Source of the DNA: Escherichia coli
Lineage (GTDB): Bacteria > Pseudomonadota > Gammaproteobacteria > Enterobacterales > Enterobacteriaceae
Assembly (NCBI RefSeq): GCF_029227855.1
Contig: NZ_CP074356.1
DNA: 64,000 bases
Reading direction: 5' to 3' (one strand)
In this document: piece by piece, positions 15,528 to 19,055 of the stretch
Layout: every line of letters begins with the position of its first letter
Numbering within the stretch: the stretch's first letter is position 1
Made by a program: the position numbers and the translations under genes
The notes under the pieces: model-generated
Database searches by the model: none
Told to the model about the DNA's origin: nothing
The model's input: only the letters and a program-made list of their open reading frames with translations

Positions 15528-15599
15528 TCAAGAGCAAATTCTGTCACTTCTCCTAATGAAGTGAACCGCTTAGTAACAGGACAGATTCCGCATGACTGA
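15513..15599 (+). CDS. uof: Uof, 28-codon leader peptide translationally coupled to fur
   Basis: ATG at 15513 to TGA at 15597-15599 (MIRIISRANSVTSPNEVNRLVTGQIPHD); overlaps the fur start by 8 nt. Confidence 0.75.
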   Translation: MIRIISRANSVTSPNEVNRLVTGQIPHD

Positions 15600-16038
15600 T
15601 AACAATACCGCCCTAAAGAAAGCTGGCCTGAAAGTAACACTTCCTCGCTTGAAAATCCTGGAAGTTCTTCAGGAGCCGGACAACCATCACGTCAGTGCGG
15701 AAGATTTATACAAACGTCTGATCGATATGGGTGAAGAAATTGGTCTGGCTACGGTATATCGCGTACTGAACCAGTTTGACGACGCTGGTATCGTCACCCG
15801 CCACAATTTTGAAGGCGGTAAATCCGTATTTGAACTGACACAGCAACATCACCACGATCACCTGATCTGCCTCGACTGCGGCAAGGTAATCGAATTTAGT
15901 GATGATTCCATCGAAGCGCGTCAGCGTGAAATTGCCGCAAAACATGGCATTCGCCTGACTAACCACAGTCTCTATCTTTACGGTCACTGTGCCGAAGGCG
16001 ATTGCCGCGAAGATGAGCACGCGCACGAAGGCAAATAA
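15592..16038 (+). CDS. fur: Ferric uptake regulator Fur (148 aa)
   Basis: ORF track 148 aa MTDNNTALKKAGLKVTLPRLKILEVLQEPDNHHVSAEDLY... identical in form to E. coli Fur. Confidence 0.97.
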   Translation: MTDNNTALKKAGLKVTLPRLKILEVLQEPDNHHVSAEDLYKRLIDMGEEIGLATVYRVLNQFDDAGIVTRHNFEGGKSVFELTQQHHHDHLICLDCGKVIEFSDDSIEARQREIAAKHGIRLTNHSLYLYGHCAEGDCREDEHAHEGK

Positions 16039-16056
16039 GCCAGCCGGAACGAGAAA

Positions 16057-16082
16057 AGCCAACCTGCGGGTTGGCTTTTTTA
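16057..16082 (+). terminator. fur intrinsic terminator
   Basis: Stem gccaacc / ggttggc with loop tgcg, followed by a T-run. Confidence 0.75.
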
Positions 16083-16094
16083 TACACGGGAAAT

Positions 16095-16812
16095 AATAAA
16101 TATCCTCCGGCATAGCCGGAGGTTTTTCAAATGCGCCTATAAGGCTCTCTTACCAGCCGCGCCCTAACAGGCGCACACGATCTGACATTTGCATCCAACT
16201 TCGTTACTTACGGCCCGTAAACGGGCTGCCCGGATAGGGAATCGATAACTGCTCTCCCATTTTATCCTCTTCAAGCTGGTGCTTTATGTAATCCTGTATC
16301 TTCGCCGTGTTCTTACCCACCGTATCGACGTAGTACCCTCTGCACCAGAACTCCCTGTTCCTGTATTTGAATTTCAAATCACCAAACTGCTCGTAAAGCA
16401 TCAGACTGCTTTTCCCTTTCAGATATCCCATAAAGCCGGATACGCTCATTTTGGGCGGGATCTCCACAAGCATATGGATATGATCTGCACAGCATTCAGC
16501 TTCCAGAATCCGTACACTTTTCCACTCACACAGCTTTCTCAAAATACTGCCTATTGCTCTACGCTTCTCTCTGTAGAACACCTGTCTTCGGTATTTTGGC
16601 GCAAAAACTATGTGATATTTACAGTTCCATCGGGTGTGCGCTAAGCTCTTTTCGTTCCCCATTGGGACCCCCTTTTGATTTCTTGTTTGACACTTGCAGT
16701 TGCCAGACCGCAAGGTGTTTTAACAAATCAAAAGGGGTTTTAATAACTGGCTTAAAGCTGAAAGCTTTCCGGAACCCCCAGCCTAGCTGGGGGTTTTCTG
16801 TGCACAAGAAAA
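16095..16812 (-). mobile_element. IS200: IS200 insertion sequence (about 0.71 kb; IS200/IS605 family), boundaries +/- 15 bp
   Basis: Contains the 152-aa HUH/Y1 transposase gene, a perfect subterminal palindrome cccccagc-cta-gctggggg (16775-16793) upstream of tnpA, and a second hairpin cctccggc-ata-gccggagg (16104-16122) near the other end. The fur-chiQ spacer is about 0.7 kb longer than I recall for K-12. Confidence 0.85.
16204..16662 (-). CDS. tnpA: IS200 transposase TnpA (152 aa)
   Basis: ORF 16204..16713; start at MGNEKSLAHTRWNCKYHIVFAPKYRR...; HUH motif HIHMLVEI and catalytic-Tyr region YYVDTVG. Confidence 0.92.
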   Translation of the reverse strand: MGNEKSLAHTRWNCKYHIVFAPKYRRQVFYREKRRAIGSILRKLCEWKSVRILEAECCADHIHMLVEIPPKMSVSGFMGYLKGKSSLMLYEQFGDLKFKYRNREFWCRGYYVDTVGKNTAKIQDYIKHQLEEDKMGEQLSIPYPGSPFTGRK

Positions 16813-16832
16813 GCGAGAGTTACAGCTCTCAC

Positions 16833-17159
16833 TTATTTGTTATTACTGCGAATTTCCTGCCAGACCTTATCACAGTCGGCTTTTACCGCCTGATCATTTC
16901 CGGTTTGCGTTGCGCGCAGACACTGCTGATAATCCAGTACGCGGACACTTTCCTGATCGGCAAACTGCTGATGTTGTTTCTCTTTCTTCAGCACGTTTAA
17001 CACGCTCTGGCAGGCTTCAATTTTTTCTGGCGAACCTTGTGCGGTGTTGATACAGGCGCTGTATGCCTCTTTCAGACGGCTGTCTTCCTGTGGCGCGGTT
17101 GATTGCGCACAAGCCACCAGCCCCGATGCCATCATGGCGATGAGAATCAGTTTTTTCAT
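16833..17159 (-). CDS. chiQ: Lipoprotein ChiQ (108 aa)
   Basis: ORF track 108 aa MKKLILIAMMASGLVACAQ...; downstream of chiP in the chiPQ operon. Confidence 0.9.
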   Translation of the reverse strand: MKKLILIAMMASGLVACAQSTAPQEDSRLKEAYSACINTAQGSPEKIEACQSVLNVLKKEKQHQQFADQESVRVLDYQQCLRATQTGNDQAVKADCDKVWQEIRSNNK

Positions 17160-17208
17160 AGCAAATTCCTCAAACGTGCGGCAGGCACAAAACCTGCCGC
17201 GTCGGGCA

Positions 17209-18615
17209 TCAGAAGATGGTGAATGGTGCGATTACCATAAATTTCACGTCACGCTCATCCTGGAAGATGTTGCCGTAACCACCGCCCCAGCTTGGGATGT
17301 CGGAGTGGTTGTCGTATTCGGTGAAGTGCAGTTTGAACATCGTGCCTTTGGCGCGGCCGTCCTGAATGGTGTAAACCGCATCCAGGCTATATGCAGACTC
17401 TTCAATAGTCCGGTTCTTGTCGTAGTACGCATCCGGATTGCTCTGCCAGGTAGCGGGTTTAGCATCCCATGCGTAAACGTAGGAAGCGCCGATGGCGAAG
17501 CCTGGAAGATTCCAGTTTTTCAGGTCATACATCGCACCGAAGAAGACCGCTTTTTCGCCGTTAGCGTTGAAGTCGGAACGGTTATCCCACCAGATATCCA
17601 GGCGGCCGTTGGAGGAAGCGTAGGTTGGAGTCATACGTTGCAGGAAGTATCCCTGCTGACCGTCGGCTTTAACCCAGGTGCCTTCCAGACGCAAATCCAC
17701 TACGTCAGCCGCCCGGTAACCAAAGGTCAACGCTTGCAGCCAGGCGGTGCCGTCATAAAGATCGTTGACGCTGCGATCGTCAACTTTATCGCGCGTACCA
17801 TAGAACTGGTAGCTGGTGGTTAACGGGCTACCGGCGATATCAAATTTGTAGCTGGCTTTGGCAAAATATTGATCGATATACCCTTCCGCCTGACCAAATG
17901 CCGCTTCCAGTACGAAGTTATTTTTGAAGTCGTATTTCGCACCGATGGAGTGAAGATAATCAACTTTGGTGGTTTTATCGTTCTGATAAAACTCATCCAT
18001 TTCCAGATGCCACGGTGCTTTGTATTCGTTGGTCCACATGTAGGAGAAACTCAACGCACCAGCATCGCCGTAATCAAAATTCGCCCCGGCTTCCGCCCCC
18101 TGATAAGTACCCGGCATAAAGCTCCAGTGCGGCGCTAACAGCGTTTGACCAGTTGGCTGAATGTAACCTGCCCTCGCCCACACCGGACCGTATTTAAATT
18201 TGGCCGCTGCTTTATACAGGCTTATACCGCTTTTGTCGCCGGACCAGTCTTCGTCATAGGCTTTATTACTTTTTGAAAACGCGATTTCGTTCGGGTGAGA
18301 GCTGTCGCCGTTTTCCGCCATTTCAATCGCCGTAAACGCAGCAATATCAAGGCCGAACATATCAGCAGCATAACCAGACTGAAAATCGAGGTTGGCGTTC
18401 CAGGTGGAGTGAGAAAGGTTGGTTTTGTATTTGTCGCCGTCGGTAACATCTTTACGGTCGCGTTCACGCTGCCAGTAATGGATACCGCCGGTTAAGGTTG
18501 AATCGTCGATGAATCCTTCGGCGCGAGCCTCCGGCATTGCCATAAAGCCCGACATTGCTGTAACACCGGCGATAGCCAGCGCCAGCGTACTACGTTTGCC
18601 ACTAAACGTACGCAT
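17209..18615 (-). CDS. chiP: Chitoporin ChiP, OprD-family outer membrane porin (468 aa)
   Basis: ORF track 468 aa [32 protein letters not shown]... ending in a C-terminal Phe. Confidence 0.93.
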
Positions 18616-18746: not shown

Positions 18747-18969
18747 CAATCTCTTTCTGTAACCAGAATGTAAGAACATGAGCAACCGCACATATTTTGA
18801 TGATTTTTGTTACAAGGCTTAAGTTTGCAGTTGAAAGGCTTGCAGAAGAATAAAAGCGTGAATTTCCAGCAAGATGAAAACGGTTACATTTTATTTAATT
18901 ATGGTTTGTGATTTTAAATTTGTTTTATGGATAAATTGCGAAGCGGAATTAATTCGCGAAGAAAAGCAG

Positions 18970-18999
18970 AAAAAAACGCCGCAGAGCGCGGCGTTTTGG
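18970..18999. terminator. Bidirectional terminator downstream of glnS
   Basis: aaaaaaacgccgc-agagc-gcggcgtttt; stem acgccgc / gcggcgt flanked by A and T runs. Confidence 0.65.
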
Positions 19000-19007
19000 A
19001 TTGTTTG

Positions 19008-19055
19008 CATGTTTCATGCCGGATGCGGCGTAAACGCCTCACCCGGCCTGGTAGA
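19008..19055. repeat. REP element
   Basis: catgccggatgcggcgtaaacgcctcacccggcctggta. Confidence 0.6.

Follow-up and report, generated by a model that had tools for sequence, protein, structure and literature searches.

A 711-bp segment lies between fur and chiQ in the window, as we call the whole 64-kb stretch of E. coli DNA that was analyzed. The two genes are convergent, with fur on the plus strand and chiQ on the minus strand, and both are confirmed by Pfam matches. The segment has the same orientation as chiPQ. The features at the locus are listed below by position.

15592-16038, plus strand: fur (Pfam FUR, 1e-49)
16054-16081, plus strand: native fur terminator, AAAAGCCAACC-TGCG-GGTTGGCTTTTTT (fold of -24.8 kcal/mol, z -5.5)
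16095-16805, minus strand: IS200C element, 711 bp (alignment of empty and filled sites)
16104-16122, no strand assigned: right-end subterminal hairpin, CCTCCGGC-ATA-GCCGGAGG (terminator scan and fold)
16204-16662, minus strand: tnpA, coding for a 152-aa Y1 (HUH) transposase (Pfam PF01797, NCBIfam NF033573)
16672-16795, minus strand: structured tnpA 5'UTR (Rfam RF01405, STnc490)
16773-16795, no strand assigned: left-end subterminal palindrome, AACCCCCAGC-CTA-GCTGGGGGTT, with 10-bp perfect arms and a 3-nt loop (predicted hairpin fold)
16806-16834, minus strand: native chiQ terminator-like hairpin, AAGTGAGAG-CTGTAA-CTCTCGCTT, with the T-tract TTCTT (terminator scan, fold, and junction mapping)
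16833-17159, minus strand: chiQ (YbfN; Pfam YbfN, 1e-53)
17209-18615, minus strand: chiP (Pfam OprD, 7e-25)

In K-12 MG1655 the fur-chiQ spacer is 83 bp (710117-710199) and does not contain the 711-bp segment. In two further complete genomes, JNEC-KY178 and GMF054, the spacer is likewise 83 bp, and their fur-side flanks are 100% identical to the window. Compared base by base with the empty site (...GGGAAATAA|GAAAAGCGAGAG...), the window has exactly 711 additional bases, with the flank neither duplicated nor lost. The boundaries are ambiguous by 2 nt owing to the single TT in the empty site, and 16097-16807 fits as well as 16095-16805. Members of the IS200/IS605 family have their target 5' of the left end. 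That rule, together with the TT that other copies have next to both ends, favours the family-consistent junction TT|GTGCAC...TATTTATT| and hence 16095-16805; the right end can also be written ...GGAGGATATTTATT|. Position 16805 is then the left end and 16095 the right end, and the tnpA sense strand, which is the top strand, corresponds to the minus strand of the window. An earlier reading, made from the letters of the window without database searches (the sequence-only reading), had described the K-12 spacer as short and the genes as convergent, and placed the element at 16095-16812. The first two points hold, as does the start at 16095, while the end at 16812 is 5-7 nt too far, depending on whether 16805 or 16807 is taken.

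Over its full 711 bp the segment shows 100% identity to copies that RefSeq lists as 'IS200/IS605-like element IS200C', and we took the name from the RefSeq/PGAP annotation of these identical copies. Under the ISfinder convention an isoform has at least 95% nucleotide identity, a level exceeded here by the full identity to the RefSeq copies. We take IS200C to be the E. coli isoform of IS200, in the tnpA-only group of the IS200/IS605 family. Copies in strains 7/2, KY 1497, EC21, and others are identical in sequence but differ in chromosomal location. What is new is only where the copy sits, in one clone; the element itself is a known one, and its presence at fur-chiQ is a routine strain-specific polymorphism, not a novel element type.

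The anatomy of the segment is that of the family. Terminal inverted repeats are absent, the termini GTGCAC... and ...TATTTATT showing no inverted-repeat relationship, and subterminal hairpins are present at both ends. There is no target duplication (0 bp), and one TT of the empty site is kept 5' of the left end. As in the IS200 group, whose elements are about 0.7 kb long, tnpA is the sole ORF with a family match in the 711 bp and tnpB is missing. The right-end hairpin is terminator-like on both strands, being followed by TTTTT on the plus strand and by ATATTTATT on the minus strand, with folds of -15.5 and -15.9 kcal/mol (z -3.8 and -3.3). The left-end palindrome is presumed to be the TnpA-binding hairpin. 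In Salmonella IS200 the same palindrome acts as a bidirectional Rho-independent terminator against outside transcription (Ellis et al. 2015, 2017; PMC4513863, PMC5435999).

We also noted that a 24-nt form of the left-end palindrome, AACCCCCAGCTAGGCTGGGGGTTC, is exactly conserved across distant phyla while the neighbouring sequence on both sides differs. The loci include a Bacillota MAG, Mailhella, Oxalobacter, and Saccharibacteria MAGs, and in most of them the contig breaks off within the IS. Such conservation could come from an extreme constraint on the hairpin that TnpA is presumed to bind, from horizontal spread in recent times, or from MAG contamination.

TnpA matches the Y1_Tnp family (Pfam PF01797) at 3.8e-38 and 130.7 bits against a cut-off of 23, and the transpos_IS200 equivalog (NCBIfam NF033573) at 1.9e-43 and 147.7 bits against a cut-off of 55. 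Its HUH motif, H61-I62-H63, aligns to H64/H66 of IS608 TnpA, whose catalytic Y127 and Q131 correspond to Y125 and Q129. The whole catalytic core can be aligned to structures of Y1 transposases, namely 2ec2 and 2f5g from Sulfolobus, 2a6m of IS608 (3.9e-19), and 2xm3 of ISDra2 (1.9e-16). A list of ORFs gives a 169-aa version with a TTG start; identical copies are annotated with the 152-aa ATG start. The exact protein (WP_000526135.1, IS200C family transposase) is encoded on at least 1000 contigs. The complete IS200-type element, the 152-aa HUH transposase, and the perfect subterminal palindrome described by the sequence-only reading are all found again in these comparisons. Judged by its sequence, the fur-chiQ copy is presumably competent for transposition, and copies elsewhere with the identical sequence look active.

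The tnpA 5'UTR matches Rfam RF01405 (STnc490) over the full length of the model (1-124) with 146.1 bits, the gathering score being 56, and an E value of 6.5e-31. Besides the left-end hairpin it has a small hairpin and a long stem-loop (~16672-16734) in which the Shine-Dalgarno region is paired, and the RNA folds at -44.3 kcal/mol (z -3.6). In Salmonella an antisense sRNA, art200, is encoded opposite the tnpA 5'UTR, and the regulation known there for IS200 involves a weak promoter, sequestration of the Shine-Dalgarno region, art200 as an antisense RNA, Hfq, and a 5'UTR-derived sRNA that acts in trans (PMC4513863, PMC5435999). By conservation alone, the same regulation may carry over to the fur-chiQ copy. 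Our scan of 15900-17300 for sigma-70 promoters found none, in agreement with the weak, undefined tnpA promoter that has been reported. As a separate observation, RF01405 matches the sense strand of tnpA, left-end terminator included, whereas in Ellis et al. (2015) STnc490/art200 is the RNA antisense to the 5'UTR of tnpA (PMC4513863). The Rfam STnc490 model seems to stand for the 5'UTR strand and not for art200.

To place the copy among others, we surveyed 5426 complete E. coli genomes, and 2063 have an IS200C copy covering at least 80% of the element. The median number of places per genome is 1 among carriers, with up to 35 in some human isolates; an average of 2.9 is cited by Ellis et al. (2015; PMC4513863). 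A query made of flank plus IS finds 25 places in JNEC-KY178, equivalent to about 24 IS200C copies, and 4 places in GMF054. Copy number is thus widely spread, and some lineages are therefore undergoing IS200C expansion.

Two other spacers in this survey deserve mention. The nagE-glnS spacer, at ~20.7-21.0 kb of the window and about 4 kb from the fur-chiQ site, carries IS200C in the same orientation in other strains such as KY 1497; it has none in the window or in JNEC-KY178. The ydcL-ydcO spacer carries IS200C in M2021-10044802/2-E, and in K-12 it holds IS609 (1503161-1504908), which begins 36 bp past ydcL. IS609 is another member of the IS200/IS605 family, with a tnpB-type insQ and the tnpA pseudogene yncK, so one terminator region has been struck by two family members.

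The insertion at fur-chiQ was found in none of the 5426 complete genomes, when at least 80% coverage of a query spanning the junctions was required. The 64-kb window is collinear with JNEC-KY178, and IS200C is the only indel between them. To the right of the IS there are 3 SNPs in 47 kb (41158, 56563, and 61637), and these are the only SNPs in the ~62 kb that remain outside a cluster in an Rhs gene. No transposase or integrase is annotated in the JNEC-KY178 region syntenic to the window, which supports the claim of the sequence-only reading that the element is the only clear mobile element in the window. Absence from all complete genomes, together with its being the only indel relative to JNEC-KY178, means that the transposition was very recent. 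We are highly confident that the segment is an intact IS200C copy that moved into the fur-chiQ spacer very recently. The copy arose by transposition inside a clone rich in IS200C.

Two features of the same comparison lie apart from the element. To the left of the IS, all 42 mismatches with JNEC-KY178 fall in an Rhs core gene (243-1388, ~1.1 kb); the cluster looks like recombination or a variable-tip exchange in the Rhs element. The part of JNEC-KY178 syntenic to ~29.5-30.3 kb of the window has seven tRNA genes (Met-Leu-Gln-Gln-Met-Gln-Gln) with internal repeats, downstream of asnB.

Both native terminators can be traced around the element. The fur terminator is unchanged in sequence from the empty-site genomes, and the right end of the IS is 13 nt downstream of its T-tract. 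The sequence-only reading had put the IS hairpins beside the fur terminator, which is correct for the right end; it missed the more informative relation, that of the left end to the chiQ T-tract. On the top strand the junction reads AAGTGAGAG-CTGTAA-CTCTCGCTT-TTCTT|GTGCACAG, with the left end directly after the chiQ hairpin and its T-run (...TTTTCTT). The chiQ hairpin folds at -11.6 kcal/mol whether or not the IS is present. Of the chiQ U-tract, the first 7 nt are kept and the distal part changes from UUUUCUUAUUU to UUUUCUUGUGC (AUUU to GUGC). Across the region, a terminator scan gave 5 terminator-like sites against 1.3 expected, and read-through from either native terminator has an additional terminator-like IS hairpin in its path. 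Outside the element, at 18938-19048 between chiP and glnS, there is a pile-up of sub-threshold Rfam matches (naRNA4 at 36 bits, RefA9, STnc420, and isrK), and the sequence resembles a REP-type palindrome with a terminator-like hairpin after it.

Does the insertion matter to its neighbours? The left-end hairpin terminates ~85% of impinging transcripts in Salmonella (PMC5435999), and terminator-like hairpins at both ends probably insulate the element. Expression of fur and chiPQ should be essentially unchanged, because the hairpins at the IS ends insulate and those of fur and chiQ are intact. The opposite reading is that the insertion is functionally consequential or adaptive, by altering fur or chiPQ 3'-end formation or stability, by convergent interference, or by supplying a local regulatory RNA. 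A change in fur or chiPQ 3'-end formation had been offered as speculation in the sequence-only reading. The altered distal U-tract of chiQ, from which a small change in termination efficiency is conceivable, speaks for it, as do the direction of art200 transcription, which runs towards chiQ, and the regulation of host genes by an IS200 5'UTR-derived RNA in Salmonella (PMC5435999). The fur-chiQ copy would add one more source of IS200 5'UTR and art200 RNAs, but trans-acting IS200 RNAs already come from ~24 other copies. Moreover, the IS leaves both native terminator hairpins and the proximal part of the U-tract unaltered, the added hairpins should lower read-through rather than raise it, and an insertion in one clone only gives no sign of selection. 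We regard a functional consequence as improbable, though it is the least improbable of the alternatives to our main reading.

A repeat of this kind could also have been placed wrongly. The nearest relative has ~24 identical copies, repeats such as these break or mislead short-read assemblies, and many IS200 loci in public MAGs stop inside the IS. However, both junctions of the fur-chiQ copy are base-perfect without duplication or loss of flank, the target anatomy (hairpin, T-run, and TT) is canonical, and so is the orientation. A chimeric join is unlikely since it would have to reproduce junctions, anatomy, and orientation all by chance, and we consider an assembly artefact very improbable. 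Slightly less probable again is a dead relic, that is, a non-autonomous or inactivated remnant. IS200 transposes very rarely in the laboratory and is reputed to be nearly dormant (PMC4513863), and many partial copies are found in E. coli, but the copy here is full length with its ORF and catalytic residues intact, it is 100% identical to many other copies, and its absence from a near-identical genome implies recent movement. Finally, while K-12 by itself cannot give the polarity of the event, we give almost no credence to an ancestral segment deleted from K-12 and most strains, as none of the 5426 complete genomes has the segment at fur-chiQ, two genomes with 100%-identical flanks are without it, multi-copy IS200C at unrelated loci matches it at 100% identity, and its junctions are exactly the IS ends.

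Recent transposition of an intact IS200C copy thus remains our reading of the locus. The fur-chiQ copy can be used as a strain or clone marker. It also indicates that IS200C is still moving in a lineage already holding ~24 copies, despite its reputed dormancy.

We also examined where other copies are found. Like the copy in the window, all eight of the other E. coli IS200C copies examined are positioned after a hairpin plus T-run. These eight are at lacZ-lacY, nagE-glnS, ydcL-ydcO, yfeX-pbp4B, uhpT-adeD, plaP-tsuA, a prophage, and one further locus, and seven of them are 30-80 nt beyond the stop codon of a co-oriented gene. For a wider sample of left-end flanks, species-representative genomes were scanned with the 24-nt palindrome, which gave 120 loci in taxa including Yersinia, Vibrio, Brenneria, and Edwardsiella as well as Desulfovibrionaceae, Bacillota, and Oxalobacter MAGs. 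A flank was called terminator-like if its RNAfold MFE was -8 kcal/mol or lower, its last G-C pair was 2-11 nt from the junction, and T made up at least 4 of its last 6 nt. Among independent IS200-group left-end flanks from many taxa, 119 of 125 are terminator-like. Of the 448 control windows, which lie 200-500 nt upstream, 8 qualify, and of the 125 reverse complements 1 does. The most frequent spacing between the foot of the hairpin and the junction is 6-8 nt. TT precedes the left end in nearly all of the 125 flanks and follows the right end in all 60 independent flanks. A strict detector of perfect-stem terminators was dropped, as it found only 50 of the 119 flanks: A/T stem extensions swallowed the T-tail, which is also why the consensus terminator scan missed the obvious fur terminator.

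From these counts, terminator-shaped ssDNA is well supported as the target of the IS200 group, a conclusion that is partly novel, with the mechanism being inferred. Terminator-like stem-loops are said to have been proposed as IS1541 hot spots by Odaert and colleagues in 1998, in J Bacteriol 180:178. Our literature search for a published terminator-target rule yielded only a 2025-26 preprint, which finds terminator-like sequences over-represented immediately upstream of ISs and sees the strongest effect for IS200/IS605 (10.1101/2025.07.22.666184). The evidence for a hairpin requirement is a correlation. T-runs that follow hairpins may be nothing more than the most plentiful T-rich ssDNA within reach, and selection may also purge insertions made elsewhere.

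Y. pestis NCTC5923 has tandem IS1541 copies in which a right end (...GGAGGATATTTATT) abuts the next left end (GTGCCC...), in one case with a single extra T. The right end could have been used as a target, or the tandem could be an unresolved circle junction.

The strand of insertion may follow a rule as well. Elements of the IS200/IS605 family place their top strand in the lagging-strand template (PMC5027513). GC skew within the 64-kb window is too noisy to give the direction of replication, and K-12 map positions were used in its place. In K-12 oriC is at ~3.93 Mb and dif at ~1.59 Mb. There chiPQ is on the plus strand at 0.71 Mb in the clockwise replichore, making it co-directional with the fork and its sense strand the lagging-strand template. 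The IS200C top strand shares the chiPQ sense strand and is, assuming K-12 synteny, on that template. [quoted passage not shown] Among them chiQ, nagE, and ydcL are on the plus strand of the right replichore, and uhpT, yfeX, and plaP on the minus strand of the left. The lacZ-lacY copy, which is antisense to its neighbouring genes, has the same strand bias.

These observations suggest a route for the insertion. Following the IS608/ISDra2 paradigm, TnpA would have cut the top strand out of another copy in the form of a single-stranded circle. The chiQ terminator would then offer a target on the correct strand, chiPQ transcription being co-directional with replication, while the sense strand of the fur terminator would lie on the other template. 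The lagging-strand rule would explain why the chiQ terminator was used and not the fur terminator sense strand 15 bp away. On balance we favour targeting of terminator-shaped ssDNA on the lagging-strand template, with fair rather than strong confidence.

The target (a hairpin, then TTTNTT) resembles the element's own right end (a hairpin, then ATATTTATT), and the transposase probably reads the two likewise. IS200-group transposases may recognize the terminator shape as a mimic of their own right end, an idea we put forward tentatively. Equally tentative is the form of the proposed target, a GC-rich hairpin followed by a T-run of ~6-8 nt ending in TT, as ssDNA on the lagging-strand template. 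To our knowledge, neither right-end mimicry nor the strand rule has so far been demonstrated for the IS200 group. If mimicry is true, the terminators of genes co-directional with replication would be a genome-wide safe harbour, and this would explain how lineages hold 20-35 copies (over 50 in Y. pestis) without gene disruption. The way in which the group inserts is shown in textbook form at the fur-chiQ locus, with a hairpin and T-run, the top strand apparently on the lagging template, and flanking genes unharmed. Annotators should expect IS200-group elements at the 3' ends of co-directionally transcribed genes, and should not take their hairpins for native regulatory structure.

Apart from the identical IS200C copies, the closest known systems are the IS200 of Salmonella enterica (IS200F/G) and the IS1541 of Y. 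pestis. TnpA of IS200C is in the same 90%-identity cluster as that of IS200F, and IS1541 has 87% nucleotide and 94% amino-acid identity to IS200C. A terminator-like target is common to all of them. IS200F/G and IS1541 are different isoforms, however, with 10-15% nucleotide divergence from IS200C, and the regulatory roles of art200 and the 5'UTR sRNA have been shown in Salmonella only.

More distant are IS608 of H. pylori and ISDra2 of D. radiodurans, which share the Y1 HUH fold and catalytic residues with the IS200C TnpA. Like IS200C, both have subterminal hairpins, no inverted repeats, no target duplication, and a target 5' of the left end, and the orientation of IS200C is consistent with the lagging-strand template. 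Unlike IS200C, they also carry tnpB. Their targets are simple sequences of 4-5 nt (TTAC and TTGAT) with no evident hairpin requirement, whereas the IS200 group appears to need a hairpin together with a T-run whose last two bases are TT. A similar choice of site is known from group IIC (bacterial class C) introns, which home just downstream of the stem-loops of intrinsic terminators. As they are RNA-based retroelements unrelated in sequence and chemistry, their likeness to IS200C is an analogy of target choice only.
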